A DNA stretch of 61,315 bases, counting the filler, from Hausera hauseri (lineage: Eukaryota): NCBI GenBank assembly GCA_046269625.1. It is 10 parts of 10 records of this genome, joined end to end, with 100 filler letters (N's around TTAATTAATTAA, not from the genome) between each part and the next. Parts side by side here need not be neighbours in the genome. Positions count along the whole stretch, not along the records: positions 1 to 4,925 come from JBJURY010389924.1; 9 more parts are not named here. One strand, given 5' to 3'. Positions 1 through 61,315 of this stretch are shown in pieces. The notes under the pieces are model-generated. The model was not told the origin of the DNA. It did no database searches and saw only the letters and a program-made list of their open reading frames with translations. A program made the translations under genes and the position numbers. Every line of letters begins with the position of its first letter. Within the stretch, counting starts at the first letter, position 1.

Positions 1-885
1 TATTTCTATTACAAAGGACAAACTGGGATAACTGAGTTGTACCACAAAATGATAACGAATGACTGTAAATTGGATACAGAGATCATGAGGACAAAACTGG
101 CTCTTATATATGCCAACCCAGAACTGGCTTCTCCAATAATTCCTATGAGAGAAGGAATTTTCGGTAGAGTTACAGGCGAAGTATTACTAACTTATGAATG
201 TGAAAAGAGAGATGTATCCATCAATGTAGAAGAAAAACGTTGCATCCAGGAACTTCCGGTTATCTATCAAAACGTTCCCAGACTAGCTATACCACTGACG
301 AGAGTATTATTGGATAACGCAACCCAACCTACTACCCTTAAAGATTGTAAAGCAAGCTTGGGAGAACCCATGTTTAGGCGTAGTGAAACAGACTGGGTCA
401 GCCTACCAAATGGAGGTATTACTGCTACACTAAGTAAACTAACGGTAACAAATCTTGCGAAGGGAATTACGGACGATAAATTTCAGGACACCTCATCGAA
501 AGGCATATATAGACCTAAAGAGATCGAAGCATTTAGACAGTTTCTCACTTTTCCGCGACAGCGAATGCACGATTTAAACCGAGCCATGGCCTCGGTTGTA
601 AATGACACACGATATCAGGCTAAATGGGAATTTTTTCTTGACGCGAATCACTACCCGAGAGTGACTTCGGAAATAATGTACAAAATTTGGGGAAAATTTT
701 TAATTTTTGGACAAGCTGCATTGGGATTCTTAGCCATCTGCTTCTTAGTACAATTAATTAAAGCAGTAATCCAAGCTGTTATAAACGAATATAAAATATT
801 TACGTTGACAGGATTCTCTTGTAAGATTTTAACTGCAATTATCACACACTTCGGAAAAATGCTTAAAGCATACGAAGAAAATTGA
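1..885 (+). CDS. Class III viral fusion glycoprotein (chuvirus G / herpesvirus gB-like env), C-terminal half; 5' end lies outside the window
   Basis: Frame is open from base 1 (YFYYKGQTGITELYHKMITNDCKLDTEIMRTKLAL). Motifs GIFGRVTGEVLLTYEC, KRCIQELPVIYQN, PLTRVL, SKGIY..EIEAFRQFLTFP and a membrane region WGKFLIFGQAALGFLAICFLVQLIK match, from memory, chuvirus-like glycoproteins found in LTR retroelements. Confidence 0.8.
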   Translation, partial: YFYYKGQTGITELYHKMITNDCKLDTEIMRTKLALIYANPELASPIIPMREGIFGRVTGEVLLTYECEKRDVSINVEEKRCIQELPVIYQNVPRLAIPLTRVLLDNATQPTTLKDCKASLGEPMFRRSETDWVSLPNGGITATLSKLTVTNLAKGITDDKFQDTSSKGIYRPKEIEAFRQFLTFPRQRMHDLNRAMASVVNDTRYQAKWEFFLDANHYPRVTSEIMYKIWGKFLIFGQAALGFLAICFLVQLIKAVIQAVINEYKIFTLTGFSCKILTAIITHFGKMLKAYEEN

Positions 886-1240
886 TGGAAAAATGATGTA
901 GAACGTCATGTCGGATATTACAATCGCAAACGATGAGGAAAACCCTCGATTCTTCATAAACGCAAAAAGGAAATGAATATAATGCGGCATGACTACCCAG
1001 ATGATGACGAGCCTAAGGGAGGCGAAGGAAATTCCAGAATAATGTTACACAGAACATATGTACCAATACCCATCATGCCACCAACCGAGCCGATTTACAA
1101 GGATTACGACTAGAATTCAGTCATATCTTACAGATCCGATATCTATCGAAAACCCATGGACTATGAAGACCCTTATGGAAAAACAAAACAATATGGGGTA
1201 TTACGGAAAATGAACGTTATCAACAAAGGACCTACGGAAA

Positions 1241-4200
1241 ATGTCCACGGAATATTATACTCGAAAAGGATACCCCGTCACAGAAGTGAAATCAGCGATC
1301 TGGAAGAACCCGAGGTTATGCTCAATCTCAGGCCCCCTACTTCAAAAACCACTTATTGAAGACCGCGTCACGGAAATAACAAATAACTATTTGTACCCGA
1401 ATGGAGAATTAAGACAATTAAGGCAGGATATCATTTTATCACCAGAAATAACGATAAACGGACACAGAGTCTCCACTGTAAAACGGTCCAAGATAGTGTC
1501 GAATTGTTATAGAACAGTAGCAGAAGGGAGACCTTTTGCTAAAATACACATCGAAGATTGGGAAGTGTATACGCTAATCGATACAGGATCAGAAAAATGG
1601 TTTATAAAATATGAATCGATACCAACCACATTGCGAGATCAGCTATGTCCACCCGCATGCCCAGACCCAGGCAGCGTAGGAGCATTTGGACAGGTATCGA
1701 AGCCGAAATTTAAGTAGACTCCTACCGTTTATATGATGGACCAAGCACTTCTACACGAATTTGCGGTAATGGACCAATTAACAGATGACGTAGTACTGGG
1801 TTGTGACGTATTAAAACAGATACCAGGTACGGCAATCGATGTGCATAATGGAAAATTAATTGAGCTCGAACCAGTAAAAAGAACCAAAGTATTAAAGGAA
1901 AGGAAATTAGGTGAAGTATGGATTCCAGTGGATGAGGACATTCCGCCTAGAACTGAAATAATAATTTTCGCGCAGATTTGTCAAGATGAAGATCTACTAG
2001 TATATTTCGAGCCTCAAGAGAATATTGATCCATACCTTATGTTTAGTAACATTTTATGTAGAGTAATGACGGGACGAATACCTATCAGATTAGTAAACAA
2101 CGCACCGATTCCAGTAAGATTGCACGCTAATACTACTTTGGGTCACACTTGCAGAATATCGGCAGTGACAATAGAGGAGAAACCATACAAGTGTGCCGAA
2201 TTTCCACCTCATGTTGAAACCAAATTCTCTCCCGAAGCGTATTGCAATTTCTACAAATTATTGTGTAAATTCCGCTCGATAATAGCGAAAAACGAAGAAG
2301 ACATAGGTAGAGCAAAGGCTCTAAGGTTAACCATTCCATTGAGGAATAAAACTGGCTCAAATGACGAAATCGATCTAGAGGAACAGAAAATGCCCAAATG
2401 GTAGCGGCCTCCTGACTCATTGAGACCAGAAATAACTAAAGAAGTAGAGCGGATGTTGAAGGCCGACATAATTCGACCACGTTATCGATCATAGTACTCA
2501 CCCATACTGATGGTTAAAAAGAAAAGAACCATAAAACATCGGTTTTGTATAGATTATTGCGCCTTAAGCACGCTGATGATAAAAGACTGGTTTCCAATAC
2601 CATCAGTAAAGGAGGCATTAGATAGGCTATCAGGAGTGAAATGGTTCACCACTCTCGACTTACAATCGGGATACTGGCAAGTGGAAATCGAAGAAGAGGA
2701 TCGTTATAAGGCAGCATTTAAAACACACGATGGCGTATACGAATTTAATGTTATGCTTTTCGGCATTATCACAGGACCAGCCATTTTTACTAAAATGCTG
2801 AATAAGATGCTCATGGAACTTGATCATGCATTTGCGTACTTAGACGACGTGATAATAACATCAAAAACAGAAGAAAAACACTTAAAGGATATTGAGGATA
2901 CACTCATGAGACTGGAACAAGCAGGGTTGAAGTTAAACCCAAAGAAATGTAAATGGGCACAGAACGCCGTATCGTAACTTGGACACATAGTTGGAGAAGG
3001 AGGATTAAAACCGGACAAATCTCTGCTAAATAAAATATCCGATTGTATGGGACCACAGAATCAAAAAGAGTTAAGACATTGGTTAGGCCTATGTGGATAT
3101 TACGCCACTTACGTACCAGACAATTCCAAAATTAACGCGCCACTATATCGCTTACTCAAAAAAGGAACTAAATGGAGATGGACAGAAGTGGAACAAAAAG
3201 CATTCGATGAAATGAAGAAAATCTTGACAAGTGAACCAGTCTTAAGATACACAGATTTTAACCTACCATTCATCATTAAAACGGATGCGAGCAAAGAAGG
3301 TATAGGGTACAAATTAGCTCAAAAATGCGAAGACGAAGAATTAGAACATATAATAGCTTATGGTGGACGCTCATTAAAGAAAGCGGAAAAAAATTATTTG
3401 GTTACCGAATTGGAAACATTGGCAGTTAAGGAAGCACTACGACACTTTAATGTCTATGTCTATGGACAAAGGATTATCATAGTGACTGACCACAAAGCAG
3501 TTACAATATTAAAAGGAGGAGATAATAACCCAACATGTAGACTAAACCTCTGGATTGAGGAAATTTTGCGATATAACATTGAATTTTACTACAAACCGGG
3601 TAACAAACACGTCGACGCCGACGCACTGTCAAGATTAAAAACAAAAACGAGTGCAATCACCACATTAAAGAGACCACAACTTGAACAGCTGATTGAACGA
3701 CAAAGAACGCTGATATCGGATAAGACAATTAGAATTTTAGCTGAGCAAGCTAAAGATACGGTTATTCAGCAAATTATCGAGTTCGTACGAAACGACAAAA
3801 TACCAAAAGGACGACAACTGTAAAAACATCTACAGAAACATAAACATAAATACCATGCATCGAATCGAGATAATATTTTGTATTACGAGCGAAAAGGAAG
3901 AAGACTAACAGTTATTCCAAAAGAATTGCGCATAGAAGTACTTATGGCCAAGCACGATTCGTATTTAGCCGGACATATGTCTTGGAAAAAGACATTGGAA
4001 AGGATATTAAATAAATACTACTGACCAAGATTTACATTGATGTAAAGAATTGGGTAGGAGCGTGCGAAGTTTGCTCAACAAAACAAAAAAAACGAAAAGC
4101 TACGTAGCGGAATTAAAACCCATAAACGTACCAGATAGGTCCATGCAAGCTATGTCTATGGATATAGTAGGGCCTCTATCTAAAACGCACAAAAACAACG

Positions 4201-4925
4201 GATACATTCTAACATGCGTGGACCGACTAACGCACTTCGTAGAACTGGTGGCTCTATTAAATCAAAAAGCAGAAACTATAGCCGACGCAGTAGTAAGAAA
4301 AATCATCTGCAAATATGGGCCACCAGAACAGATTTTACCGGATAGAGGAAGGAACTTCACAAGCGAATTATTCGAAAAAATTACCAAGATATTTGAAATT
4401 GAACGCTTAACTACTACCGCATACCACCCACAATGTAATGGAATGGTTGAGCGGATGAACGCAACAGTTATACGGATACTATCAACAGTAGTGGCAAAAG
4501 ATCAAAAGGATTGGGATGAATTCCTAGAAGGGGCACAATTCGCGATTAATACGACTCCACATCCAGCAACAGGGTTCACATTGTTCTTTATGATGTATGG
4601 ACGAAAGGCAATCTTACCTACCAATCTAGGCATGACGCCGTATGAAAAGAACCTCGAGGATCTAGAACAATACTTTGCCGAAGTTTTACAAACAACATTA
4701 CAGAAATGTTGGGCAGTCGCGAAAATATTATCACTGGAATACCAAGAACAATTTAAAAAATAATATGATAAAAAGATTAAACCTCATGATCTGGGAAAGG
4801 GAAATTGGGTTTATATACATTACCCAGTCGCGAAGAAAGGTATATCCTTGAAATTAACACGTCCCGGAAGAGGACCATATGCAATCATCCGGACAACACC
4901 AAATACGGTTTATGTCAATAAAAAT
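1241..4925 (+). mobile_element. Decayed Ty3/gypsy pol: protease - RT - RNase H - integrase (GPY/F)
   Basis: LIDTGS (PR); RFCIDY, LDLQSGYWQV, YLDD (RT); TDAS, ELETLAV, TDHK, DADALSR (RH); HDSYLAGH..CEVC, MDIVGPL, TTAYHPQCNGMVER, GPY (IN). Several stops and frameshifts; cut by the linker. Confidence 0.95.
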
Positions 4926-5025
4926 NNNNNNNNNNNNNNNNNNNNNNNNNNNNNNNNNNNNNNNNNNNNTTAATTAATTAANNNNNNNNNNNNNNNNNNN
5001 NNNNNNNNNNNNNNNNNNNNNNNNN
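4926..5025. other. Artificial contig linker N44-TTAATTAATTAA-N44
   Basis: Identical 100-bp spacer with stops in all six frames; nine copies in the window. Confidence 0.98.
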
Positions 5026-7327: not shown

Positions 7328-9726
7328 TTACGTTCCGTTTCCGGAAGTACGGGCGTTTAAGGTAATGTGTGTTTCAGTATGGACAGGGATCGGGTCATAT
7401 ACTACGGGAGTGTCCATATTGAATGGATCAATTCTGTCGTAATTTTCGCGAAGCTTGTCTACTTCTAACATGCTTGTTACGTATTGGTGGGTAGGATCTT
7501 CCGTATCGGAATCATGATAGCCGAATGCGGGTTTTACATTTGACAAGTGGATTATGTGTTCATCGTTTCCGCGCAATATTTTGGCGTTTCGCTCAGTGAT
7601 GTCTATGAGCTTGCAGGGGTCCGTGTAGTATGGTTCAAAACCGTGTCTTTGTTGGCTTTTGAGTCAGACAAAGGACGCATCTTGTAGATTCTTGAGCATG
7701 ATTGGTTTTGTGTGATTGTTGTGAATGCAGGGTTTGTGTCTATTGACAGAAAATGCTGCCTAGATTGGTTGAGAGAAGGAATGGAAGTTACTTCCTCATT
7801 GCTCACCAGATCTTGTGGGAACGTGAGGTGGGCACCAAATAGTAGTTGTGCCGGAGAGGCATCAGTGCTAGTGTTGGGAGTGTTTCTCCAACCTAATAGC
7901 ACAATGGGTAATGCATACAACTAGTTCTTGTCATCGTGACATAGGATTTGTATGGATGATTTGAGTGTACGATGAAATCGTTCAATCAAGCCATTCGCCT
8001 GTGGATGATAAGGCGGTGTATGTATGTGCTTTGACCCAAGCGATTTGATTAATTGGTTAAACATGGCTGATTCGAATTGTGTCCTTTAATCTGTTATAAT
8101 CTTTTAGGTACTCCAACCCGAGAAATCCATGTATTTAGCAGTACAGCCACAACGCTTTGCGTTGTTATTTGGCGGATTGGAATGGCTTCGGGCCATCTTG
8201 TTTTTCGGTCGAGAATGGTTAGGATGTACTGATATTCGTTACATTTGGGAAGTGGTCCTACTATATCCATGTGGATGGTTTCAAACCGTGAGACAGTAGG
8301 ATAGTGTAGGATTGGAGGTTGTATGGTCTTGTTGACTTTGTACTGTTGGCAAAATGAACATTCTTTTGTCCACCGCATTATGTCGCTTAGCATGCGAGGC
8401 CAACAAACTCTACTGCTTAAAAGACGTGCTGTGGCTTTTGATCCAGGGTGATGGATGTTGTGTATGGTGTCAAACGTCTGTTTCCGTAGGTATGCTGCCA
8501 GAATTGGGCGTGGACAACCATTGAGGATGGTATTGTAGTGTATTCCATCCTTTATGTCGACTGTTTTGAAAAATGTAACATCGTCTTTATGTGGAGGGTT
8601 CGATCGGAGAACCTCCTCCGTGAAAATTGAGTCGAAGGATATCGTCGATATCCCAGTTCTGGAAAAGAAGTCAGCAACTGTGTTATCTTTACCATTTATG
8701 TGTTCTATGTGGAATGAGAATTCCGACAGAAATGAAATGTGTCGCTCTTGACGAGGCGATGGGTTTTTTATACTCATCATGTGAATGAGTGGTTTGTGAT
8801 TCGTGCGGATTGCGAACACATTTCCTTCGAGGAAATGTCAGAAGTGTTTGACACTAAGAATTATGGCTAGTAACTCTCGGTCGAAAGTTGAATAGCGTTG
8901 CTCAGCCGAATTGAATTTGTGGGAAAAAAATTCAATTGGAGCATTTTTGTCATCGATTGACTTGGAAAGTATGGCGCCTGCAGCGATTATGGATGCACAT
9001 GTTGTTAAGATGAACGGTGCATCTCGTTTACGATAGTGCAGTTTAGGTATGTGAAGAAACGCCATTTTTGCATTGGCAAATACCTGTTCAGCCTCATCCG
9101 TCCAGTTTACCTGGAATTTCTTGATTCCTTGGCATAGAGCAGGTAGAGGTGACAGGATTTCCGAGCAATGCGGAATGTAGCGATGGCAGAAATTGATCGT
9201 GCCTAGGAAGCTGCGAAGTCAAGTCACTGTGAATGGCTTCGGTATTTGTTTGATGGATTCTAGTCGCTCAGGAAGTGGACTATGACCATGTGGTGTTAAC
9301 CGAAATCCGAGAAATACGGCTTCAGTTTTAAATAATGAACATTTGTTTATGTTCAACTCTAGGTTGTTTTCATTCAACCTATGAAACACATGTTCGAGAT
9401 GTGTTTCGTGAGTCGCTTCATCGGGTGATGCAATCAATATGTCATCTATATATAGAATTGCATAAGGCATGTCGATGAGGACTTGGTCTATGTGGCGTTG
9501 GAATGTTTGACTTGCATTTCGTAAGTCGAATGGCATACGTAGATACTCGAACAAACCAAAAAGAGTTATTACGGCCGTTTTTGGAATGTCTTCGGTAGCC
9601 ACTAAGATCTGGTGGTATGCCCTTTCCAGATCAATTGTTCTGAATATTGCTGCACCATGTAGGCGATGCAATATGTCTGTTACCAACGGTGTTGGGTATG
9701 AATCGTGGATGGTGACGTTATTCAAC
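7328..9726 (-). mobile_element. Decayed CsRn1-like Ty3/gypsy pol (RT-RH-IN), 5' truncated by linker
   Basis: [70 protein letters not shown]. Confidence 0.93.
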
Positions 9727-9826
9727 NNNNNNNNNNNNNNNNNNNNNNNNNNNNNNNNNNNNNNNNNNNNTTAATTAATTAANNNNNNNNNNNNNNNNNN
9801 NNNNNNNNNNNNNNNNNNNNNNNNNN
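9727..9826. other. Artificial contig linker
   Basis: N44-TTAATTAATTAA-N44. Confidence 0.98.
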
Positions 9827-13407: not shown

Positions 13408-14319
13408 TTATATTAACAAATTTAGCCGCCCTTCGTGGATAACATCGAAATTATTTTTTCTCTTTAATAATTCAGTGGTAATTGTCTTTTGTAATTTGGT
13501 AAACACCGTTTCAATGGGATTGAGAAACGGCGAGTGCGGCGGTAACGCCACAATTTCATGTACATTTATCGACTGACAGTTTATTGGAGCATTATTGTGA
13601 ATTAAATAATGCCGTCTACTTGGTAACTTTTGGGATAATTCATTTATAAATGTTTCGTAACCATCTTGATTGAAATATCCAAATTGGGCTTTGTAATGAA
13701 TTGGACCAGTTTTACAAATAGCCATCACCAGATTTAAAGAATCTTCATTCGAATTTTGCGTAACTAAATCGACTTTATTTCGAAAACAAGATTGTTTTTG
13801 TCCTTGCTGAGTCCTCAAATTCATAGATAATTCACCAATGTACACGCAATCTCTACTCTGCCAAGTTTCCTCCAAATGACGCCTCACATACTTGTACCGG
13901 AGATTTTTAAATTTTAATGAATTTTTGTCGGAAACGGTTTCCTGTTTTACCTTCACTTTCTGAAATTTTCTGTTCAAATATCGGGCCATTATTCCCATTG
14001 AGCATTTTTTCTAGCACGTCTTTTCAAGATAATCAAACATATGTTTCAACTTTGCTTGAGGAACCTGTTTAATATATTCGAGAAGATTCTTTTCTGTGGA
14101 ATCATTTATCATGGATTTTTTATGACTGCCACGATGTCCAATACTGGTGCGGCCATATTTCCTATACCTGTAAATGATACTTTTTACTGTTGTTTTAGGC
14201 ATGCCCAAACGTTTCCCCAAAAAAATGTAATTCTGACCATTTAAATAGGCTGTAACAAGCTCTTCTTTGGTTAATTTTGAGATTCTACCAATAAATTTAG
14301 TGTCACATGTATTAAACAA
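13408..14319 (-). mobile_element. Degenerate IS630/Tc1-superfamily transposase (HTH + DDE_3)
   Basis: The two ORFs are in one frame split by a TAG at 14011. HTH LGMPKTTVKSIIYRYRKYG; CVYIGE (D->G), IHNNAP (D->N), LPPHSPFLNPIE. Confidence 0.85.
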
Positions 14320-15983: not shown

Positions 15984-16136
15984 TTGATTAGTAGTAGTAA
16001 TAGTAGTAGAAGTAGTGGGAACAAATGTTTATAAAAGAGTAGGGGTTATGCTTAACGTTTAATTTTAAGCGTTTATTTTATTTATAATTTTAAATGTTGT
16101 TAATTTGTTTAAATTTAGAAATTTAAGCAATATCCC

Positions 16137-19100
16137 ATGTACTGCGTCTTGCGTCCACATATGGAGGAGGAGGATCAGTGCCATCAAGACATGGCAAAAT
16201 ATTACAAAATTGGTCCGGAGACGTATGTGCGTCTAACTTGTGATGTTCCAACCGGCTGTCCGTACCCCGACTTTTATGAGATGCACAAGCATCATCTTGG
16301 TCCATTTACGCGGCCCAAGAAGATGATGCATGTGCATTGTCCCACATACCCACACCACTGTAGTAATAAAGTGCACAAAGTTAGTGGTTGTCATAGTACA
16401 ATGGAGCAGTACTATGGCATAACAACAACGCTGCACAATAAACGGGCGTACGTTTGTCCCGGTTGTTCAATAGTTAAAGCTCATATCATTTATGAACAAT
16501 TTTATAGTCTGCACAAAAACCACTTAAACCAGTTTAAGCGGTGGAAGAAACAAATATTTATGGACAGCAGTAGCAGCAGCATCCTGTCAACAACAACAAC
16601 AACCAGAAGGAAACGTCAGGCCTCAACACGTCTTGGCGACTTAACCAGAAACAGTACCCAGCAGCAACATCAGCAGCAGCAGGAACAGCATCAACAAGAA
16701 CAGAAGGTCAGTATTCTCAACTTTACATTCAAGTACGATCTGAACAGATCATGCGTGGACATGCAGTTGGACATGTCGGCGAAAACAGTACCGCAATTGA
16801 AAAATGTACTTGCTCATGTGCGTAACCGGTTGGAAACAAAGGTGGCCAAATTCCAGTACCACCACCACTGCAAAGTACAATATTATGTACTTGCAGAATT
16901 TAAAAATTTGGAATGTGACAGAAAACAATAGTACCCGTTACATCGAGCACTACCGTATTTCGAAGATTTTATTTCCAACGTAAGTGAGAAGCTCGAGGAG
17001 AAAATCGCCAACTACACAGAAAAAGTTAGTGGATGGCGAATTATAAGAATTGCCACTCTGGTCATAACAAAGTCGAGTGATATGATATATTTGTCTGGAC
17101 GACCATTCATACCTACACCTACAGCTTTGAAGCAGTCTCTGGCGGTGGTGAATGTAAAAAATACCAACGATAAATACTGTTTTATTTATAGTATTTTATT
17201 TATAGTCCTGTATGTCCTCATGGATTCAGGTTGGAAACAACATCAGAGAAACATGTGACTCTGTGTGGACAAATTTTATCTGGAACCACAATGTATGTCG
17301 TGCCCGTCAAAAAGAAACTCAGTTTCACTGATTGGTCAATAATAGATTGTCCGGCATATGTAGTATATGCCGATATCGAAGCTATCTTACCGCGGCACAA
17401 CATATCTGACCAAAAACATGTTCCAATCGCCGTCGGTATGTTGGTTCTCCGAATAAAAGCCGCACGTCGTCAACCTCTATATTACATTTTTCATGGCTGG
17501 AACTGTGTACGTGATTTCCTGCAGCAGTTGGAAACAATATTAAAAACGTAAATCGCACCCTGGTACAGCAGAAATAGCAATAAACCTTTGATGTGGACAG
17601 ATGAAGATGAACGCCTGACGTTTGCAGTCACAGATGAATGTTACCTATGCCACAAAATATTACCGTTTGATGCACAGGAACGGCTCGTATGGGATCATGA
17701 TCATTTTACCGGTCGATATTTGGGAGCAGCATGTAATTCATGCAATTTGGCAATGCGTGTGCGGCCATTTCTACCGCTGGTATTTTATAACTTTCGAGGT
17801 TATGATTGTCACCATGTTTTGAAGTGGGCCATCAACGGATTTCCGCACTGAGAACTATCCATAATTCAAACAACGATGGAGAAGTACCTGTTCCTATCGG
17901 CACGCATAAACCGGTTCCAGATAAGGTTTATTGACTCATTGCAGTTCCTCAGTGAGTCTCTAGGAAAGCTCGTAAGTGCCTTGCCGGATGTGCCGATAAT
18001 GCTGACGCAATTCCCTGCGCATATTGCACGTACAAAGGCATACTCCCATATGACTTTGCTGTGTCGTACAAGCGGCTTCAGACAGCAGACGAATTGCCGC
18101 CACAATGGACCGGAATCAAAGAGGAAGAGTACTACAGAGCACAGGAAGCGTGGACAGAGCTCGGGTGCAGAAACATGTTGGATATGTTTTAGACATTTGG
18201 TGCTAAGGCTTTGGCGGAAGATAGACTGGAGCCGCTAAACTTTTATTCCATATCGGGGATGAGTTGGGCATCGACACTAATGTAGCTGGACAGGGAAATT
18301 GAGCTGTTGCAAGAACCGGAAATGTACAGACTATTTGATGTTGGTATTCGTGGTGGAATAACATTTGTCAACAAGCATCACGTAACCCGTGATAACGATG
18401 ATGATACAACGTCAATGTTGTACATCGATATTAATAACCTGTACGGCTGGGCGTTTTTGCAACCCTTGCCGTACGGTTCATTTGAATGGATAATGGATAG
18501 ACAAGAACCGGATACATTGCTGGACAGTCTGCCAACAGCAAACACGACAGAAAGCAGCTCAGTCGGCTACCTAATGGAAGTCGATCTTTTGGTACCAGAT
18601 GAGCTGCATGACGCTCTGGATGAATTACCCGTGGCACCAATCAGTCAATGTCCGCCCGGCGCAAAAGTAAAGAAATTTTAGATGACGCATGAACCCAAAT
18701 CGAATTACGTTGTTCATTGGCGTATATTGCAGTTTTACATGTAGCTCGGTGTACGCGTCACACAGCTGCATCGCGCAATCCGCTTCAATCAGGCGCCGAT
18801 ATTCAAGGCATACATTGGAAATTCGGAGAAACGAGCCGCAGCTTGTACAAAGTTCGAAAAGGACTACTACAAGTTGAAAAATAACTCTCTCTACGGCAAA
18901 ACAGTAGAGAACCTCGAAAAGCGACTCAATGTGCGCCAAAGTAACAATGAAATGCGGCTGGTTACGTACACTAGCAAGGCTCAGTTCAGGCGGTCAATGC
19001 ACATTGCCGATGGATTGGTTGCGGTGCTGTTAAACCGGGAAGAAGTCGGACTGGACCGACCAAGCTATATCGGACAAGTGGTATTGGACCTGAGCAAGTT

Positions 19101-29229: not shown

Positions 29230-32200
29230 GACTGCGTGTTTTGTTTTTGTGCGGTGTGTTTGCTTGCAGAGGTTGAAGTTGGGGAAAAATTGCCTGATTT
29301 TGTTGTGTTGTGTTGTGCGTAGATGAGTCAGAATAAAGAGAAGAAGGTGAAGAAGGAAGAGAGATTGTTGAAGACGAAGGAATGATTAAAGGTGTAGTGG
29401 CGGATAAAGGAAGAGAGAGAGAAGTTGGAGTAGAAGTTGGAATTGGATTGTGTGAAATAGTAGAAGTGGAAGATGAAACAGAAGTAGTATTAGAGAGAGG
29501 AAAAGGGATAGGGATAGAAGTAGAGAGAAGGAAGTTGCGAGGTGGAAGTGATATGCGTAGAAGACGATATGTGAGGAGAAAGGGATTAAGAGTGCCTCAA
29601 AAATGAGGAAGGCGTGGATAGAAGGAGAGATAGAAAACGACGAAGAGGTACAAAACGGGAGAGAGCAAGAAGATAGAGAAGGCGAAGGAAAGTAGTTAGA
29701 AGTTGGTGTGCAAGAGGTTGAAATGATGAAAGAGGTGGATGGAGAGATTGGTGAAGTTGAAGTGGTGTTTGATGGAGGAATTACTGTAAAAGGAGAAAGT
29801 AGGTTGTTATGAGGGAATGAAAGGTGTGAAAAGGTTTGAAGGTGGAACATCGCACGGGTAAGAAAAGGCTGAATTGTGAGAAGAAATTGAAGTAAAAGTC
29901 TTGGGAGAAAGCGTAGACAAAAGTGGATTAAGAAATTGAGCAGAGATGGAAAGTGGATTGTTAGATTGCTGCGCGTCGTGTAAAGATGTTGGTGGAGAAG
30001 TGGTTTCGATGGGAGACGTGTCGTCAATGAAGAAGGCCGGCTTAGCGTTGTTGATGTGAACTGTTACTTTGTCGTCTTTGAGAATGATGATTTTGTGGGA
30101 GTGTAAGCGAATTACTTTGTAAGGGCCGACATACTGAGGTTGAAAACCACACGGCGTCTGATTCTTTAACCAAACGAACTTGGCAGTATATAAATCGTCG
30201 GGTATGCAAGGTTTATTTGCGTGTAAAAATCTGCAAAATGAGTCTTTGCTGATCTCAACGAAACGTCACTGTGCCGCTTGGACGGTTTCGTCTGTAGGAG
30301 TATTGTCCAGCTCAGTCAGCTCGAATAATGATCTGATGGAAGTGACAAATAATGCTTCTGCAAGTGAACAGCCTGTAGAAGGTGACGGTGTGTTCCGCCA
30401 GCCAAGCACAACGCACGGAAGGAGTGTAGTCCAACTGTGGTTGGACTCAGCAAGAATTTTAAGAGAGACGTTTTCATCGTTCGGTGAAAGCGTTCGAGAA
30501 AGCCGTTCGATTGGAAATGGTATGGTGACGTGTGAATGTGGTTAATTCCCAATCGATAGAAAAGAGCTTTGAACAGGTTGGATTCCAACTGTGGACCTTG
30601 GTCCGAAATGATGTGGCGAGGTGATCCAAACCTGCTGATCCAAGTGCGGATGAAAATGTCTGAGATGGTTTCTGTGTTGGTGCTGCGAAGCGGGACAGTC
30701 TCTGGTCATCGCGAGAAACAGTTCACCATTGTGAGGATGAACTGATGGCCGTTGTCTAAGGGTAGTGGGTCTACAAGGTCAATGAGAACAGATTCGGAAC
30801 GAGACGTGCAGGGAAAATGAAATAGTGGTGGCTTAGTAACTTTATATTATATATTATATATAAAGTGCTTAGTAACTTTATATTTTTGGCATGCCACACA
30901 CTGCCTAACCCATGCCTGCACGTCAGAGCGCATCGACGGCCATACTACTTGGCGTTGTAAGAGGCGAAAAGTGGCCTTTTACCAGAATGATGCAACGAAT
31001 GTACGCTGTGGAACGATTCCTTTTGAAGCGACTCAGAAAAAATGATTTTGGGATTATTAGGTTTGGAGGTGTCAAAGGCCACACCGTCGATGGTTTTGCA
31101 AGATTTAAAAGATTTAAGAATGTCAGGAGGTGGCTGGTTTTGTTGAAGTTTGGAATGAGAAAAAATTGGCGTAAAATTAATCGAGCTGACCGATCGGGAC
31201 AAAAGGTCAGCTACTACATATTCGACTTCGTTTAAATGCTTAATTTGAAAATTAAGTGTTCATAAATACGATATTTTCCTCTCCTGACGTTGAGAAGGCG
31301 ATTACATGGTGAGAATTTGAAGCAAGGGCTTGTGGTCCGTTTGTATGGTAAAAGTTCGTGCAGTTAGGTGATGTTTAAAGTGTTTTACAGCAAGGACCAT
31401 TGCAAGCAACTCTCGGTCAAAGGTGGAATATCTCTGCTCTTGTGCTGTGAATTTTCGAGATAAGAATTCCAATGGCATATGAGATCCATTTTTGACTTGA
31501 TTGAGGACAACACCTGTAGCTGTTGTGGTTGCGTCGATGGTTAAAAAGAGTTCGGCATGGGAGTCTGGATTTCCACAGTTTTTAAATTGTCTTTGAGGTG
31601 ATCGAAAGCGTTGACTAGTTTGGCGGTCCATTGAATAGGCTGTTTCTTCTTGCCAGAGCTTAGTAATGCAAATGGAGCGGTTAGAGTGGAACAGTGCGGA
31701 ACATACTTATAAATAAAGTGCAGGGTTCCGAGGAAAGAACACATGTCTGTTGATATACGTGGTAGTTGTATGTTTTTGAGCTGTGTGATGCGGTCTGGCT
31801 GAGGTAAATGTCCGGAGGAGCTGATATCATGTCCTAGGAAGTTGACTTTATGTTGAAAAAAGCAGCACTTAGAAAAATTGATTTGCAAATTGTTTTGGTG
31901 CAGGCGTTGGAAGATCAAACGTAGGTGTTCGGAGTGCTGCTTTGAGGAAGATGATGCAATTAAGATGTCATCAATATAGGGGTAGGCAAAGTCTAAATCT
32001 GAAAGAACTGTATCTATATGCCTTTGGAAAGTCTGGGAAGCACTACGGAATCCAAAAGGCATAAAGAGGTACTCGAAAAGGCCGAAAGGTGTAATGACAG
32101 CCGTTTTCGGAATGTCTGCTGGGGCCACAGGAATTTGGTGGTATGCTTTGTGCAAATTAATGCAGGAAAAGATGGTTGCACCATGGAGCTTGTGAAGTAT

Positions 32201-32968
32201 ATCGTTGATTAGTGGTAGAGGGTAGGTATCCATTGTTGTTACGGTGTTGATTTGGCGGTAATTACCGCATGGGCAAAAGGCACCATCTTCTTTGGGAACC
32301 ACATGCAGTATAGAAGACCAGGGGGATTTGGATCTTCTGATTATTCCTGATCTTTCCAGTTCAAGAAACTCAGCCTCCACTGCCTGTCTGCGACGAGGCG
32401 ATAGCGGACGTACATTTTGACGTATTGATCTCTGATGTGCTGTTACTATGTGATGAAAGGTGGATTGAGGTGGTACAAATGATTTGTCATTTTGCAACAG
32501 ACGCGTGCAGGAGGACGAAATGTATTTCTGTAGAACAAAATGCAACGATGACAAATTATCCGATGATGTCGATGCATCGTGACTGGATGCAGTTGAGGTA
32601 TGAATTATAGACGAAGTGTTGTGACTGGGTGGTATTTGGTTCAGGATGTTTGTGTTGAAGATGGTGTTGGCAGCTGTGCTATTAGACATAGGTTCCACGC
32701 AGTTGGCAATATCGTATTTATCACCGTAGTAAAAATTTCTGTAGAATGAATGATTATAAAAATAATTTAAATCGGAAGTCGTTTTTTTCAGTACTGACTT
32801 GCTGGAAACGATCGCTCGGGTGGTCATTGAAATGTTGCTAATTTGATTAAGATTACTTCCGCACTTTAAGGAACATCGCTTGCAATCTAAAAGTAAATTG
32901 TAGTGGGACAGAAAGTCTGAACCCAATATAGGTGTGCGTACATTAGCTATTGTAAATTTCCATGTGAA
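29230..32968 (-). mobile_element. Decayed CsRn1-like Ty3/gypsy pol (PR end-RT-RH-IN) with long Ser/Pro/Thr-rich 3' tail
   Basis: PILGSDFL, PCGNYRQIN, DIPKTAVITPFGLFEY, YIDD, YSTFDRELLA, TDHKPL, YHFQSNGFLERFHR. Clearly paralogous to 53960-57430. Confidence 0.93.
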
Positions 32969-33068
32969 NNNNNNNNNNNNNNNNNNNNNNNNNNNNNNNN
33001 NNNNNNNNNNNNTTAATTAATTAANNNNNNNNNNNNNNNNNNNNNNNNNNNNNNNNNNNNNNNNNNNN
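32969..33068. other. Artificial contig linker
   Basis: N44-TTAATTAATTAA-N44. Confidence 0.98.
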
Positions 33069-34689: not shown

Positions 34690-35150
34690 GAGCTGTCGAC
34701 ACGATCATTGTCGACCTGAAGGATGTCGACATGAAGGTTTCGACACAAACGTTGTCGACAAGAAAGTCACCAAATTGAAACGTCACCGTCATGACAAATT
34801 CGACGACATGAACATTGTCGATACGAAAGTTGTGGACATGAACATTGTTGGCATGAAGGATGTCGACATGAAAACTTGCGGACGTGAAAAAAATTATACC
34901 GTGAAAACTTACGCACATACCAAAGTCGCCAACATCAAAGTTGACGACATTAACCCAGTCAACATTAAGGTTTTCGACATGACAGTTGTCAAAATGAAGG
35001 TTGTCGATATGAAAGTTGTCGACATCAGTGTTGTCCACATGAAAGTTGTCGATATGAACGTTGTCAACATGATAAAGTTGTCAACATGAAAAAAGACGCC
35101 AATAGGAAAAGTCACCGACATGGCTAAGTCGCTGACATGAATACTCCCGA
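34690..35150. repeat. 15-bp minisatellite, consensus GTTGTCGACATGAA(A/C/G)
   Basis: Roughly 30 degenerate 15-bp units centred on GTCGAC; they generate the MKVVD and VDNFH repeat ORFs. Confidence 0.9.
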
Positions 35151-50420: not shown

Positions 50421-52410
50421 TACTATGAAGCATTAAGAAGTATGTTTCAAAAGCATTCTATTCAAAACTTTCAGGTTAAGAATAACATCGCAGCACATCA
50501 TGTGTCAGCTAAGTGGGGTAACCTCGGAGTTACTGAAAGGTTAGTGAAAAAAGGAGCCCATTAGGAATGCAACACAAGGGATGGACTGACTCCTCTTCAT
50601 TGTGCTGTTCGAATCGAGCATGAAAATGTCGTCGCGTATTTTCTAAAGGTAGGCTCCAATCATTCGGCCAAAACTAGATATGGCCTAACAGCGTTGCATA
50701 TGGCATCTCAAGGAGATCACGTAGAATGTGGGTAATTATTAATACAGCATGGAGCAAATATCCACGAAACGACTTTGGATCTCTTAACTCCATTGCACGT
50801 TGCTGTACATTGTGGACATGTTAGAATTTCCAAACTATTGATAGATCGTTCTTGTGAAATAAATGCACGAGCACTGAATGGCTTTACGCCTTTACATATT
50901 GTATGCAAAGAAAATCACGTTAAAATTGTCGAATTGCTGTTCAAATGTGGTTCGACGGTTGAAGCTACAACAGAATTTGGACTTTCACCTCTTCATGTTG
51001 CTGCCTTCATGGGCTACACTAATATTCCATAAATGTTAATTCAAAATGAGGCTAATCCTAATTCATCAACAGTACGATGCGAAATAATACTTCATTTAGC
51101 CACCAGAGCCCGTTAACAGGAAATGATAAAATTACTTTTGAAAAACGGCGCCATTGTTGAAGCTCGTGCAAAGGAACAACAAATTCCTTTGCACATTGCA
51201 GCACGATTGGGTAATGTGAATATTATTTCCACTTTATAATTAGGAACAGATCCAAAGGTTCAGGGGAGAAACGGTTTAACTCCTTTGCATCTAGCTGTTT
51301 ACTATTCATAAATGCTTATGGCCGATTTACTTTTGGAATTTCAAACATCACCGTTCAACACATCTAAAAATGGATAGCCGTATTTGCATATTGCATCCAG
51401 AAATAATTTACTGGACATTGCACAAAATCAATTGAAAATCAAGCAAATCCAAATTGTGAGTCTCATGACGGTTTTACTCCATTGCACCTTTGTAGTCAAG
51501 AAACAGACGCTAATGCCAAAGCAAAAAATCTCTTAAACAGAACACATTTAGCAGCTCAAGAAAATTGTGTAAATGTTGCAGAAATTTTGGAGTCGGCGGG
51601 TTGCGAGATATATTCCAAAACAAAAGCCGGATATACTCCACTGCATACGGCCTGTCACTTTGAACAACTGAATATGATTAAATGTCTTCTCCGGCACAAC
51701 TGTGATATCAACGCACAGGCGAATTTTGGTTTTACAGCACTTCATTTGGCAATTTCCGGTGAAGACAGCATACATGAAGGATATGCCAATGATCAAAATC
51801 ATTTTCTACGAGAGTCTGGATTAATAAAGGACTCCATTGTGAGAACAAAGGTAATCAGTGACTACGCTGTTGCTCTGACTGACTGGGACTACACACCAGA
51901 CAATGTTCTAGTTGCACGGAAACCAGTTACGTCAGTGTTCCTGGTATCGTTTCTTGTCGATGCTTCTATGCATGGCAGCCGTCATGTTGGACTGAGACAT
52001 TAGTTCCACGAAGTTCGGCAATTGCACCGACACGTGTTACATATCGAATGATTAGTGCAGATAGAGTTCTTCATCTACCGCTTCTTAATGATGGCGAGTG
52101 TTTAGCGTGCAGAATTATCGAAACGGGGCTTCATCCGTGTAAATTCAACACTCCCGTTTTATTGGAAATACAGTATTTTGCAACACTCCCTAAAGATAGA
52201 GAATCAGTTATCCTCCGTTGTGACAATGGTGAAGTACGGAAGGAATATTTGTTGGAAATGACAGATCAAGCTGTAGTCGATGCGTTAGGCACGTCATTCG
52301 GAGAAATACTGGAAACCGCCGAGGAATTGCGCGAATAGCGAATTGTTCGAATCCTGACGACCGGATTCCAAATCCATTTTGCTGTCATGCGATTGAAACA
52401 GGAGATTTTG
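50420..52410 (+). pseudogene. Intronless, heavily decayed ankyrin (ANK repeats + ZU5)
   Basis: Serial TPLH repeats ([34 protein letters not shown]), then FLVSFLVDA and LNDGECLACRIIE..FNTPVLLEI..RESVILRCDNG (ZU5). Many stops, frameshifts and deletions. Confidence 0.92.
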
Positions 52411-52489: not shown

Positions 52490-55400
52490 TTCAAAGTAAT
52501 TTTATGATTGGATATCTTTCTATATTTACGGAGCATTCAATAAACTGTATATCTGATGGATCGAGAATGACCACCCCCGCTGCACTGCGTCCACTTTCCC
52601 TTATTTTTTTCAATAATAAACATGGATACACACTAAGGGTTGCTTGCAAACATACGGTGCACATCCTTTATTATGCATTGTCTTCCTTTTTTGGTTCCAC
52701 CGACTTTTATTGCATGCACAATGGCTTGACTTTGTTACCCTCCGACTCTGTCATCTTTTGCATCCGGGAAACATTTAATGACACTAACTGTCCATTTTCG
52801 TATCCGTGGTGGATCAGACCCTTATCCTTCTGCCGAAAATTTAAACAAAACCAGATCTGTTTGTCGTCCTGCCAACCTCTCACCAATTACATCTCCAAAT
52901 CTTCCTTGCACAGATTTTTTTCTTAATAAAACCAATTCGAGTCGCACTTGGTTACAGTTCCATTTGCAATGGCTTAATGCCAATTATATTACAGACTTCT
53001 TTTTGCGGGCAAACAGTTTGCTGCTACTACTTCCAGCTAATATCAAGCAGCAAATCAACAATCTTGCTGACATACTTCTTCACGTCTATATGATATACTT
53101 TATGAATCAGTTCGGCATATCACCGACCCTTCCATTGACAGAATAATTCAGAAATACTTCAATTAACACGCCATCGGAAATCAAAAACCGTCGGATTTCC
53201 TTAAAACTGCAATCTCGCAATTGACCTACTTGGGCGTCACTACCATAAATAATGCCGATCTTCTTCGTCCGTATTTTCTTTCATCCTTGCCAACCTCCAT
53301 TAGAGCGTTGCTCACGGTAGTAGACGAATCAGTGGCCCTTGAAAATCTCGCCCTATTAGCAGACAAAAGTTTTGACATTTTGCAGTCTAATAATTCAGAG
53401 CTAGTAGCTGCAGCAACCCCTCACACACCGTCACACGGATAACAGTTTATTTGCACAACAACTGCATATGATGCAGAAGCAATTTGACACACTACAACAG
53501 GCAATTTCTGCGATCACAGCCCAAATCAGTGACTTATCTGGGCCTCGAAAAAGCGAAAACCGTGTTTCGCGCAGTTGTAGTTTTTCCAGACACTCTGCTC
53601 GATCAATTTCACCTGGCGGACGCATGACTTGATTTTATTACATGCGATTTCGAAGGAATGCTCGGAAATGTTTTTTTGGGTTGTTGGTTCTACAGGAACG
53701 GTACGCTGTGGACAATCCCATTTGCATTTATCACAATAAGTTTCAGTCACGAGCTAGGTCGTGTGTGCCAGGATGTAAATATTATAAAAAGAATTCTAGT
53801 TTTTCTTCATCTTCGTCGCTTCCTCGCACTCATCATTCCTTCTCTTTCTCCCAACAAGCCTGAAAAAACTAATAACGCCGCCAGATGCCACGGCACATTC
53901 TGGTATAGGCAATACCGCTGAATCTTCTGGCCGTTTCAACACCACCTCTGCAGTCTTTCTGTTGAAAGCTGATCTGTTATTTGGAGACACATCACACATA
54001 GACTTGCTTATTGATTCAGGAGCTGCCTTTTCACTTCTTTCTTCGTCTTTCTCTCCTACCTCCAACACAGTTCTCTCTCCTCAACTCTTCACTGCCTGTG
54101 GCCAACCCTTGAACATTGTAGGTACCACAAAGCTGTCCTTCACATTCTACAACCCACCAGGGAAATTATCTTGGGAATTTTATATAGCCAATATTAGATC
54201 GCCAATAATATGTTCCAATTTCCTGGCTGCATACGATTTGTTAGTCGACCGTAAGTATAGATGTCTGCTGAGCAGAAACTCCGTTACAAATGCCAAAAAT
54301 GCTCACCAGGTGATTCGTCGTGCATCTTGTTTTCCTCTGTTTATTTAAATGTCAATTTGACATGCTGTTCATCAGCTGATAACAACACACTTAATAATTC
54401 ATCAATATTTTAAACCTCGTCAAGTGGGAAAAAATCAATCTTGAAACAATCGGCTGAACCGAATATCGTTAATGACGTATTCAGTCATTCTACATCAATT
54501 ACAGCCACTGACTCTATATGATATGCCCTCATCGTTCCTATGGTTGATTTTTGGTCTTAAATCCTACATCAAAACCTCTTGTTTCCGTATTCTCAAGATG
54601 AAAGTCAATTTCAAGCCGCATTACATAACTTATCACCACATAGTCACCGAACATCAAAGACCTATTAGACAAAAGGTCAGACCACTGTCACCTCGCAGGC
54701 GAAAAGCTGTTGAGTCAGAGTTCAATAAGCTCGAAAAGCCTGGCATTATTCGTAGATCCAAGTCACCATGGGCTTCACCATTGCATGTAGTAAAAAAGAA
54801 AGATGGCACTTACAGACCATGTGGTCACTATTGTCAGTTAAATAATTTAAAAGTCTTGGATGGTTACCATTTACCTCTTATAAATGACATCCTGAACAGC
54901 CTTACCAACACTAACACGTACTCCACAATTGACTTTCATAAAGCATATCATCAAATTCCTGTTGCACCTGATGATATTCCAAAAACTGCTGTTATTACTC
55001 CATTTGGCCTCTACGAATATATCTTTATGCCATTTGGTTTACGTAGTGCTTCTCAAACTTTCCAACGGCACATTGATACCGTATTCTTAGGTCTTGACTT
55101 CGCTCATCCATATATTGATGACGTATTGGTTGCCTTTACATCTGTCAAACAACATCAAGAACACCTTCGTATTATCTTTCACAGATTACATCACAGCAAT
55201 TTGCAAGTCAACTTCGCCAAATGTCACTTCTTTCAAAAACGCGTAAATTTCCTAGGTCACGTCATCACTCCTCACAGCCACTCTCCACAACAGGATCAAC
55301 TACAACAATTAAAGAACATAACTCTACTAACGACTACCACGGATATGAGAAGCTTCTTAGGCACACTCCATTTCATCCACAAATACGTACCTCATTGTTC

Positions 55401-57520
55401 TGAGCTCATAGCATCTTTTGCCCATTTATCATCCGGAAAAAAGGCAGTTGATTTACTGGACTCCTGATTTAGTCACTAAGTTTGACAACTTACGAGATGG
55501 CCTAAAATCCGTCGAAATACTGGCCTATCCAAAGCCCAACGCAGATCTAATACTTACCACCGATGCCTCGACTACAGCAACTAGTGCGATATTACACCAA
55601 ATATATAATGGTGTTGATGAACCATTAGAATTTTATTCCCGAAAGCTCACGCAACCCAAAAGCCGTTATTCAACATTTGACCGTGAGTTACTCACCATAG
55701 TTCCGGCAGTAAAACATTTTAAACACCTACTTCTCTCTCGTCCATTTGTAATTCAAACTGATCACAAGTCTCTCCTGCTCATCGTGTCGTTAAAACAGCC
55801 ATCACCGAGGCAAGAGAGACATATATCATGCCTGTCTACGTTTAGCTTTGTGTTGGAATATATTTCAGGCATAGACAATTTAGTATCAGACTTTTTCTCG
55901 AGGTCGGTTGGATTTATTACAGTTGAGCCAATTTTCTCATCCGAAGTCTTAAAGGCAAATCAACCGTCTGTTAACTTCCCTAGTCCTTTCAAGTCCTTCA
56001 AAATCATTGATGGCATTGCTTTTGATACGTCGAATTCCGGTAATAAAAAGATAATTCTAACTACACCTTTACAAAAACCAGCTTTCCTTTATAGGCACTC
56101 ACTCCATCATACGGGTTCGAAAGCAACCTTTCGTCTGCTTCAACGTCATGTAGTCTGGCCATCAATGCGCAAAGATGTACAGGGCTGGATTAAGAAATGC
56201 GTAGCCTGTCAAAAATACAAAATTAACAAACATCCGAAACCGCCGCTTTACCATTTCCTCTGTACATCACCCTTTCATACAGTTCATCTTGATCTCGTTG
56301 CTCCTTTACGTTCAGACAACGGATATGAACACATACTTACAATGATGGGTCTTGCTACTTGCTGGTCTGAAACCGTTCCTCTTCGTTCAACGAACACTAA
56401 GTCAGTTGCCGACGCTTTTATTAAAATCTGAATCAGTTGCTTTGGTTCTCCACGTTATGTAATAACGGATCAAGGTCCACAATTTAAGTTGGAACTTTTC
56501 ATATTGCATGTCAAGGGTTTGGGAATATCCCATTTCCATACTACACCATATCATCCTCAAGCAAACGGCCTCCTTGAAAGGTTCCATCGCACAATGAAAA
56601 ATTTTCTAAAAATCTTGGCTGACACTTATCGTAATTGGACGTCCATTCTACCATTTGTTCTACTAGGTTGGCGCAACACACCCTCAACCACTACCGGTTG
56701 TGCTCCAACCGAAGCACTCTTTGGGACTTAAATTCGGGCCTTATTTGAGTTTCCTGATCTCAACGACAACCCTACAGATGAAAAATTCGTTTCTGCACAA
56801 TCCCACTTCGTCGAGGTCAGCTCAGATTCATTTTGTCGCCTCTTCAACAACAACAAATCCTATATTCAGAAAGATTTATACTCCGCCAAGTTTGTGTGGT
56901 TGAAAGATCAATCGCCTTCGGGTTTTAGACCTCAATATGTTAACCCGTATAAACTGTTGAATCTTTCATCTCATACAGCTACAATTTTACGCCAAGGTAT
57001 ACCTTACAACATCCACATTTCGAATCTGAAGCCCCCTTTCTTCATTAATGACAATCCGTATGCCAACTCTACCGCTAATTAAAATTCAACTCCTACTCCT
57101 ACCGATTTTCTAAACGACTTTGCGCCGTTGCAGCAATCACTGTTTTGTCACACTCAAGCATCATGTCCTTCATCCGTCTCGCTTCCCTCTCAGTCATCAT
57201 GCTCACCACTTTCTTCACCTCCTTTACCCACGTCGACAATTTCATCACCTCCAATTGCATCGCCTTTTTTGCTCGACTCATCTTCTGTATCATCTTCATC
57301 GGAAAATATCACTCAACATCCTATCATAAATCCGTCCAGTAAGGCACGCAGGGTGACATTCAGTACCTACGGCAGAGAAAAGTTCGGTGATGATACACAA
57401 CGCCTAACTCATACTAAAACCGAATAGACGGTAAACACTGTTCCTCTCATCCTTATTATGGTTATCATTCCTTTTCATCCTTACATAGTTTCTCTTCTGC
57501 CACGGGGAGGGGGGGGTGCT
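52490..57520 (+). mobile_element. Near full-length decayed CsRn1-like Ty3/gypsy element: (Ubl)-gag 52567-~53900, pol ~53960-57080, PPT 57504-57516
   Basis: Gag IGNQKPSDFL, FLSSLP..LENLALLADK, CHCC knuckle CIYHNKFQSRARSCVPGC; PR LIDSGA; RT YIDD; RH TTDAS, YSTFDRELL; IN HHTG..CVAC, YHPQANGLLERFHR; GGGGAGGGGGGGG followed by TG. No matching LTR pair identified. Confidence 0.92.
52567..52813 (+). other. Putative ubiquitin-like domain (ends RIRGG) N-terminal to Gag, split by one frameshift
   Basis: LIFFNNKHGYTLRVACKHTVHILYYALSSFFGSTDFYCMHNGLTLL / PTLSSFASGKHLMTLTVHFRIRGG aligns by eye with ubiquitin TITLEV..DTI..LIFAGKQL..RTLSDY..TLHLVLRLRGG. Confidence 0.6.
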
Positions 57521-60290: not shown

Positions 60291-60793
60291 TTATTAACCC
60301 GCTTGTTCATGTTGTATCATTGATTTGGGTAAATTGTGAGAATAAGATCAACATCGACAACATGGAGCATGGAAATCTATCAACTCCAACGAAGTTTAAG
60401 GATGATGTAGCGTTTAAAATGACTGGGAAGGCAAAGACCTTGGATTACAATGCACAAAATGACAAATCCGCAAAACAATCCAACGCAATCACGATTGATG
60501 TTATGTATGTCGATACAATTGGACCGTTAACAGAATTCAAGAATATTAATATTGATAGCTATCCGTTATCGTTGACTATTGAGCAATCCATGCATTTAGA
60601 CTTCCAGTATAACCCACTGAGATGCGATTTAACTCAGCGGGCTCTTAAAAAATTTGTCAATAACTACGGGGGAAATGTTGCAACTAACAGATGCCAATCC
60701 TGAACCTAAATCATATCTGGGGGTATTCACCGATGGTGTATTCGTCCATTCGATGGAAAGTCAATGCGCTGCAAAGACTCAAAAGAGACACAG

Positions 60794-61315
60794 TCAAAGT
60801 AATTTTTATTGGATTTTCATTAGACATTTCTCTCATTGATCAATCAACCAAGTAATTGTCTGACTGGGGAAGCGAACGTGACCGCCCCCGCTGCACTGCA
60901 TCCCCTTTCCATTCTTATTTTCTTCAATAATAAACATAAATACACACTAAGGGTTGCATGGAAACATACGGCGCACATCCTTTATTTTGCATTGTCTTCC
61001 TTTTTTGGATCTTCCGACTTTTATTGCATGCACAATGGCTTGACTCTGTTACCTTCGGACTCTGTCATCTTTTGCATCCGGAAAACATTCATTGATACTC
61101 CCTGTCCATTTTCGTATCCATGGTGGATTAGACACTGACCCTTCCACCGAAAATTTAACCAAAACCAGATCTGGTAGTCGTCCTGCCGACCCCTCACCAA
61201 TTACATCTCCTAATCTCCCTGGCATAGATTTTTTCTAGATAAAACCAATTCGAGTCGCACTTGGTTACAGTTTCATTTGCAATGGCTTAAAGCCAATCAT
61301 ATCACAGACTCCTTT
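60794..61315 (+). mobile_element. 5' part of a second copy of the Ubl-gag CsRn1-like element, running off the window end
   Basis: 60878-61315 is a close direct repeat of 52567-~53000; weaker similarity extends back to TCAAAGTAATTTT at 60794/52491. Confidence 0.9.

Follow-up and report, generated by a model that had tools for sequence, protein, structure and literature searches.

Ty3/gypsy elements that carry an envelope glycoprotein of the herpesvirus gB type, with their genes in the order GAG-ENV-POL, have been described from Nematoda, Bryozoa, and Platyhelminthes (Chary and Hayashi, eLife 2026, PMC13524379). The text of that paper gives 9 flatworm and 10 bryozoan entries, with up to 215 copies in Schmidtea; it also reports chuvirus-like glycoproteins beside gypsy pol, describes NERV, in which a captured RNA-virus glycoprotein stands before a Metavirus pol, and calls the entry mechanism of the gB-carrying elements unknown (PMC13524379). 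In mosquitoes, the Anakin elements hold a chuvirus-type glycoprotein within a BEL/Pao long terminal repeat (LTR) retrotransposon (Dezordi et al. 2020, PMC7642597). Here we describe an element from Hausera hauseri in which a gB-type envelope gene (env) lies directly before a Ty3/gypsy pol. It was found in a 61,315-nucleotide stretch of DNA (the window) taken from assembly GCA_046269625.1.

Like the GAG-ENV-POL errantiviruses of gB type, the element has a gB-type env immediately upstream of a Ty3/gypsy pol and is multi-copy; unlike the published elements, the copy in the window is decayed and truncated (PMC13524379). It resembles NERV, by description only, in having a glycoprotein before a Metavirus pol. 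As in Anakin, a chuvirus-type glycoprotein forms part of an LTR retrotransposon, but the Anakin backbone is Pao and the window pol is of the Ty3/gypsy type (PMC7642597). The glycoproteins of chuviruses and other Monjiviricetes, and herpesvirus gB, have the same class III fusion fold, but they are stand-alone proteins of about 650 amino acids or more, with neither protease nor pol behind them. A reading of the DNA made from the sequence alone (the sequence-only reading) had implied that an env-before-pol gypsy lineage would be new; this claim falls, since GAG-ENV-POL elements of gB type are already published, and PMC13524379 was the only paper returned by literature searches on the arrangement. 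We assign a probability of about 0.85 to the window copy being a decayed GAG-ENV-POL element in which Env and Pol originally shared one continuous frame.

The window joins ten short contigs end to end, with 100-base spacers (N runs around TTAATTAATTAA) at 4926-5025 and at eight further places up to 46684, so adjacency across spacers carries no meaning. The element, all of whose features are on the plus strand, occupies the first contig, which ends at 4925. It runs off the start of the window, leaving the 5' half of env outside, and stops at the spacer at 4926-5025. By analogy with the described elements, gag would be expected upstream of env, outside the window. The LTRs and the primer-binding site likewise fall beyond the cut ends of the contig, as do ectodomain domains I-II, whose cysteine-bridge pattern is a feature of the Platyhelminthes C1a type.

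Positions 1-882 encode the C-terminal half of a gB-type envelope glycoprotein, matching profile positions 323-599 of 653 in the Pfam family Monjiviricetes_fusion (PF24664, E 9e-38). A family profile of 110 relatives, compared with the PDB, gave herpesvirus gB in 34 of 37 matches (best E 0.003). The alignment-based structure model had a predicted local distance difference test score (pLDDT) of 84, and a single-sequence model reached only 40. Among the Foldseek matches of the model listed for the PDB, the first 13 were gB (best E 1.6e-3), and the top rows from BFVD were chu-like and related glycoproteins (E 2e-13 to 1e-9). A wide VIA structure search placed four gB chains on top with middling scores (Z 6.3-7.9), followed by the Thogoto virus glycoprotein; structural alignments with chuvirus-type and gB glycoproteins showed 19-30% identity, and the same family accounted for 26 of 30 Atlas matches. 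Searching the PDB with the envelope as a single protein returned chance GpsB matches only, locus scans of viral and metagenome contigs with env gave no match, and none of 1685 candidates from a word-based search proved to be a longer envelope relative. Taken together, the Pfam, profile, Foldseek, BFVD, VIA, and Atlas results identify 1-882, at the level of prediction, as part of a class III fusogen of the gB/chuvirus type, as the sequence-only reading had proposed; env belongs to the HSV/gB type (HSV, herpes simplex virus), as in the errantiviruses of that group.

The C-terminal transmembrane (TM) region noted in that reading was recovered by hydropathy. At 685-790 lies a strongly hydrophobic segment (residues approximately 229-263; a long helix in the model), likely the TM anchor, and next to it a weaker helix that is likely amphipathic. 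One strongly hydrophobic segment followed by a weaker helix is common to the window copy and the 19 fused relatives that were profiled (see below). Because there is a single strong segment, the C-terminal part of Env is likely to lie in the cytosol.

The domains of pol follow in the order protease (PR), reverse transcriptase (RT), RNase H (RH), and integrase (IN), an order directly established here. The aspartic protease (1523-1825; RVP, E 5e-4) has its DTG Asp at 1580 and a stop at 1715. The reverse transcriptase (2516-2992; RVT_1, E 1e-30) has a YLDD motif and a stop at 2975, and the RNase H (3179-3574) is of the Ty3/gypsy type (RT_RNaseH_2, E 3e-32; RT_RNaseH, E 1e-27). The zinc-binding domain of the integrase (3914-4021; Integrase_H2C2, E 1.5e-6) is interrupted near 4020-4040, where the frame changes; RVP, RVT_1, RT_RNaseH, and Integrase_H2C2 lie in frame 2, and the integrase core (4137-4430; rve, E 1e-12) in frame 3. 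In the translation of 4872-4880 is what we take to be the GPY motif of the C-terminal integrase module. The domain order, the gypsy-type RNase H, and the H2C2 integrase are those of Ty3/gypsy elements (Metaviridae), and neither a Pao peptidase nor a related family was found in pol by Pfam at E<=1. Lesions in pol comprise five in-frame stops within 1214-4021, the frame change, and one stop at 4761. Added to the stops in the junction, they mean that the whole copy is decayed, pol to the same degree as the junction.

Between env and the protease, frame 1 is open from position 1 to TGA 883 and is then interrupted only by TGA 934 and TAG 1111 until TGA 1357, as the sequence-only reading had stated and translation confirmed. 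The region 886-1356, which we annotate as the Env cytoplasmic tail and Env-protease linker, has 2 stops in frame 1, where shuffled sequences would have 9.6 (P 0.0024). The open part of frame 2 begins at 1214, with an ATG at 1241, so that both frames are open at 1214-1356, and it is within this zone that the copy changes frame. The distance from the env stop to the protease is about 640 nucleotides, which puts env before pol within the 2000 nucleotides used as a working limit for GAG-ENV-POL errantiviruses of gB type (PMC13524379). Pfam gag families gave no match in 886-1356 or 1214-1540, in keeping with the earlier statement that no recognisable gag lies between env and pol, and a hidden gag was rejected on this ground. 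No repeat pair or other sign of an LTR was found in the junction.

The state of other copies was read from contigs of two public sequencing runs, one of which may be the source sample (21,419 and 1,908 contigs aligned). These sister copies cover 30 of 30 bins of the element and 29 of 29 bins of the junction (850-1400) in both runs, and transitions are far commoner than transversions among their differences. The stop at 883 is read as another letter in 96 and 97% of the depth in the two runs, that at 934 in 88 and 86%, and that at 1111 in 99 and 100% (for run X2 this figure rests on one contig); the middle base of ATG 1241 differs in 91 and 77%. Loose ends occur in the overlap zone in both runs, and the four pieces crossing it among those listed all have gaps and differ in length. 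Since most of the sister depth reads otherwise at these sites, the overlap of the two frames, like ATG 1241 and the three stops, appears to be a lesion private to this copy, and its stops and frame switch are likely neutral decay. The sequence-only reading had the protease frame starting at 1241 and overlapping env; frame 2 is indeed open there, from 1214, but ATG 1241 was rejected as a start of pol, and the overlap appears to belong to this copy alone.

The sister copies also show where the env frame was coding. Among 40 of 57 difference rows, and with a cut-off of 93% chosen post hoc, 10 of the 13 sites polymorphic among sisters in 886-1250 fall at third positions of frame 1 (P 0.002), as do 16 of all 28 difference sites (P 0.008), compared with 1 of 9 polymorphic sites beyond 1290. 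The env frame therefore served as coding sequence up to about 1250 but no longer beyond about 1290.

In-frame fusion of Env to Pol is directly established in relatives. An envelope search of 1.84 billion representatives gave 389 matches, 11 of them at E<=1e-30, and in 9 of these 11 closest relatives a protease follows Env within the same protein; one of the other two is a 203-amino-acid fragment. Several of the closest relatives are Gag-Env-PR-RT-RH-IN in a single protein, and P0043, P0046, P0193, P0196, and P0199-P0202 (our numbering) continue through reverse transcriptase, RNase H, and integrase. A search limited to long proteins, a limit that favours fusions, found Env with a protease in 7 of 7 matches, the query included. 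A distant fused example, P0008, was reached from the pol side, and of 153 envelope matches 11 were matches to the pol of this element too. Upstream of the ectodomain, 13 of 15 long relatives have a signal-like hydrophobic segment, and 6 of these 13 also have a CCHC knuckle still farther upstream; a gag family precedes env in P0053, and a knuckle or gag family was seen in seven relatives overall. The Env-Pol polyprotein suggested by the sequence-only reading is well supported by these protein sequences as a property of the lineage, and a single polyprotein comprising Gag, Env, and Pol was likely the product of the active element. NERV (Sacco et al. 2022, J Gen Virol) reportedly have a continuous gag-env-pro-pol open reading frame (ORF) and are said to be confined to nematodes; in the present element the corresponding frame is broken in the window copy, by lesions that look private, and continuous in relatives.

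The same element could instead have encoded Env and Pol in two distinct ORFs that overlap, with programmed frameshifting or read-through linking them and Pol as a minor product. The window copy has 48 codons in which both frames are open, and a 1:1:1 ratio of Gag, Env, and Pol is unusual. Three ORFs are mentioned in PMC13524379, whose main text lacks the words 'polyprotein', 'fused', and 'frameshift', though its figures or the supplements of its preprint may show a fusion. Against recoding, an overlap of 48 codons can arise by chance from one lesion (P 0.05-0.14), the length of the sister pieces varies across the overlap zone, neither a -1 slippery heptamer nor an exact Ty1/Ty3-type +1 heptamer occurs in 851-1420, and the closest relatives are in frame. 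We consider recoding improbable.

Several observations weigh against a single element with a continuous Env-Pol frame. The PDB fold scores are modest (E>=1.6e-3, none reaching 0.001; Z 7.9). P0047, among the closest relatives, stops 12 residues past its envelope match; most of the weaker envelope matches are stand-alone proteins of about 650 amino acids; and the fused relatives are nearly all metagenome products known from protein sequence. In the RT-RH tree, nine fused relatives form a clade (support 98/97), and the window copy falls outside it on a long branch, in an unsupported position. The integrase tree also leaves it outside the fused clade, with a non-env element as the nearest row by path. 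Sister depth is lowest at the junction, and none of the pieces listed (16 of 1,069) bridges the whole of it.

The depth, the missing bridge, and the failure of the trees to tie the window pol to the fused clade would be compatible with a scenario in which a chuvirus-like glycoprotein, whether an endogenous viral element or a BEL/Pao env, merely adjoined an unrelated gypsy pol through nested insertion or misassembly. Yet in both runs no junction bin lacks overlapping sister pieces, a coding signal is present in the linker, the junction shows neither a repeat nor a sign of an LTR, and relatives keep the same order within one protein. A linker that is coding, present in many copies, and covered without a break is not what a nested insertion would produce, so env and pol belong to one multi-copy element, as the sequence-only reading had held, and we regard chance adjacency as very improbable. 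A stand-alone chuvirus endogenous viral element was likewise ruled out by the coding linker, the pol behind env, and the fusion of the closest relatives to a protease. As to placement, the trees were built from unnamed relatives, with no named errantivirus or BEL/Pao reverse transcriptase included; P0194 was omitted from the RT tree as a cluster mate, and matches of fewer than 200 aligned residues from the integrase tree. Among the proteins fetched, the 8 best RT-RH matches and the 10 best integrase matches were fused relatives or their cluster mates, with RT-RH identity to the nearest relatives of 41-44% and env identity of 33-37%, and a locus scan with RNase H found one distant locus (L001). 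The position outside the fused clade on a long branch marks the window copy as a distinct lineage. By eye, the closest envelope relatives, P0043 and P0044, resemble the Schmidtea rows 'Platyhelminthes_C1a', sharing for example DAIRLVRK (PMC13524379, supplement 2), a resemblance that hints at a lineage of flatworm type.

The fused relatives have further features of their own. Two to seven DTG/DSG protease-like domains per polyprotein occur in P0044-P0046, P0048, P0050, P0053, P0193, P0196, and P0199-P0202, between Env and reverse transcriptase and in some cases after the integrase; the window copy has one protease. Some of these multi-protease proteins also contain C2H2 fingers or ankyrin repeats. 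One or two more hydrophobic segments follow the integrase in P0043, P0046, P0193, P0196, and P0081, and in P0043 and P0196 they flank a domain of 280-290 amino acids without a Pfam match, possibly a second membrane protein. P0043 is labelled a hypothetical protein of a Flavobacteriaceae metagenome-assembled genome, and is likely from a eukaryotic contig binned there. P0017 represents another one-ORF architecture, Gag-Pol with a baculovirus F-type Env at its C-terminus.

The tail carries a hydrophobic-Tyr-Pro motif, LYPNGEL (1391-1411), 62 residues before the protease Asp; it is read in the frame of pol, as would follow from tail and protease having once shared one frame, and is a candidate for either a release site or a YPXnL late domain. 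Tyr-Pro is present in 16 of 19 linkers (TM to first protease) of fused relatives, against 4.6 in shuffles, mostly 30-90 residues before the catalytic Asp, and the linkers otherwise show little visible similarity. The stricter pattern YPx1-3[LI] occurs in 10 of 19 linkers, compared with 1.8 in shuffles (highest 7 in 5000) and 1 of 16 non-fused controls. In all 12 multi-protease relatives, the first protease after Env has Tyr-Pro ahead of it, against only 5 of the 23 later proteases. The shuffle test overstates the case for the motif, which was a post hoc choice among relatives that are kin, with envelope identities of 23-98% (median 43%). The Tyr/Pro motifs pointed out in the sequence-only reading, PPTEPIY and YEDPY, are both in frame 1 as it said; they were rejected as conserved signals, frame 1 having no match to PPxY or YPXnL, and the conserved motif is the one in the pol frame.

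Tyr-Pro belongs to a class of bond cut by the human immunodeficiency virus (HIV) protease (PMC3185513), and YPXnL is a late domain that binds ALIX (PMC8402826), of which LYPAL in murine leukemia virus (MLV) is an example (PMC4848597). The motif is compatible with both functions. Recruitment of ALIX and the ESCRT machinery from the Env tail for budding, instead of or besides proteolytic cleavage, is favoured by the enrichment of the strict pattern and by the preference of Tyr-Pro for the first protease. That pattern is absent from 6 of the 16 Tyr-Pro linkers, the same dipeptide suits a protease, and the post hoc choice of motif among kin counts here too, so that we hold a late domain to be possible but on the doubtful side. 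To judge from these sequences a protease site is somewhat more likely, both may hold, and the motif could alternatively be a YxxPhi sorting signal. Literature searches on this arrangement and on late domains in errantiviruses, and one on planarians, did not find the tail motif in print, nor did the text of PMC13524379 yield a discussion of in-frame fusion, topology, or the motif. The motif is the sole part of these findings that may be new.

These features suggest how the active element might have worked, and we present the following as a hypothesis. Gag, Env, and Pol would be translated as a single polyprotein. A signal sequence located internally, behind Gag, would direct the ectodomain into the lumen of the endoplasmic reticulum, and cleavage by signal peptidase would separate Gag from the rest. 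With transfer halted at the one TM segment, the tail and Pol would stay in the cytosol, and Pol would enter particles on the Env tail and not on Gag. Self-release of the protease would likely take place close to the conserved hydrophobic-Tyr-Pro motif, and release of Pol in this way is plausible. Through the fusogen, particles would gain entry to other cells, allowing spread from cell to cell. A more speculative version, which we think rather unlikely, is that the Env tail took over the role of retroviral p6/p12: with Gag cut off by signal peptidase, the Env trimer would package Pol, and the YPXnL of the tail would recruit ALIX and double as the site of Pol release.

Elsewhere in the window, a second decayed gypsy PR-RT-RH-IN region lies at 37398-41432. 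Its RT-RH adjoins the fused Env-Pol clade (support 88/41) and is 56% identical to that of P0199; an upstream env cannot be seen because the contig starts inside the protease, and a 438-amino-acid open frame after its integrase has no Pfam match. A different group of gypsy-type pol sequences is represented by three more decayed copies, with about 27-29% identity to the env-linked pol, at 7328-9770, 29807-33016, and 53800-56818. Remnants of DDE transposases (DDE_3 and DDE_1) are found at 13408-14010 and 49146-50073, and decayed-looking, host-like pieces with matches to ZU5 (ankyrin-type) and RasGEF at 51407-52338 and 59528-60703. A common repeat is present at 52538-53002 and 60849-61315 (about 89% alike), and a 15-base tandem repeat, open in both directions, at 34691-35073. 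Open frames at 16119-18681 look by eye like a Polinton-type DNA polymerase and have no Pfam match at E<=0.01.

The gene order of the Hausera element was already known, and the copy described here adds one more distinct, once abundant lineage to it. A membrane protein placed between Gag and Pol would prevent the two from being packaged together in a single soluble precursor. If the Env-tail scenario is true, it would constitute an envelope-driven route of retroelement assembly, absent from the literature examined. Given relatives with in-frame fusion and a conserved motif in the tail, this assembly becomes testable at three points: the signal-peptidase cut, the carriage of Pol on the Env tail, and the choice between a protease site and an ALIX site.

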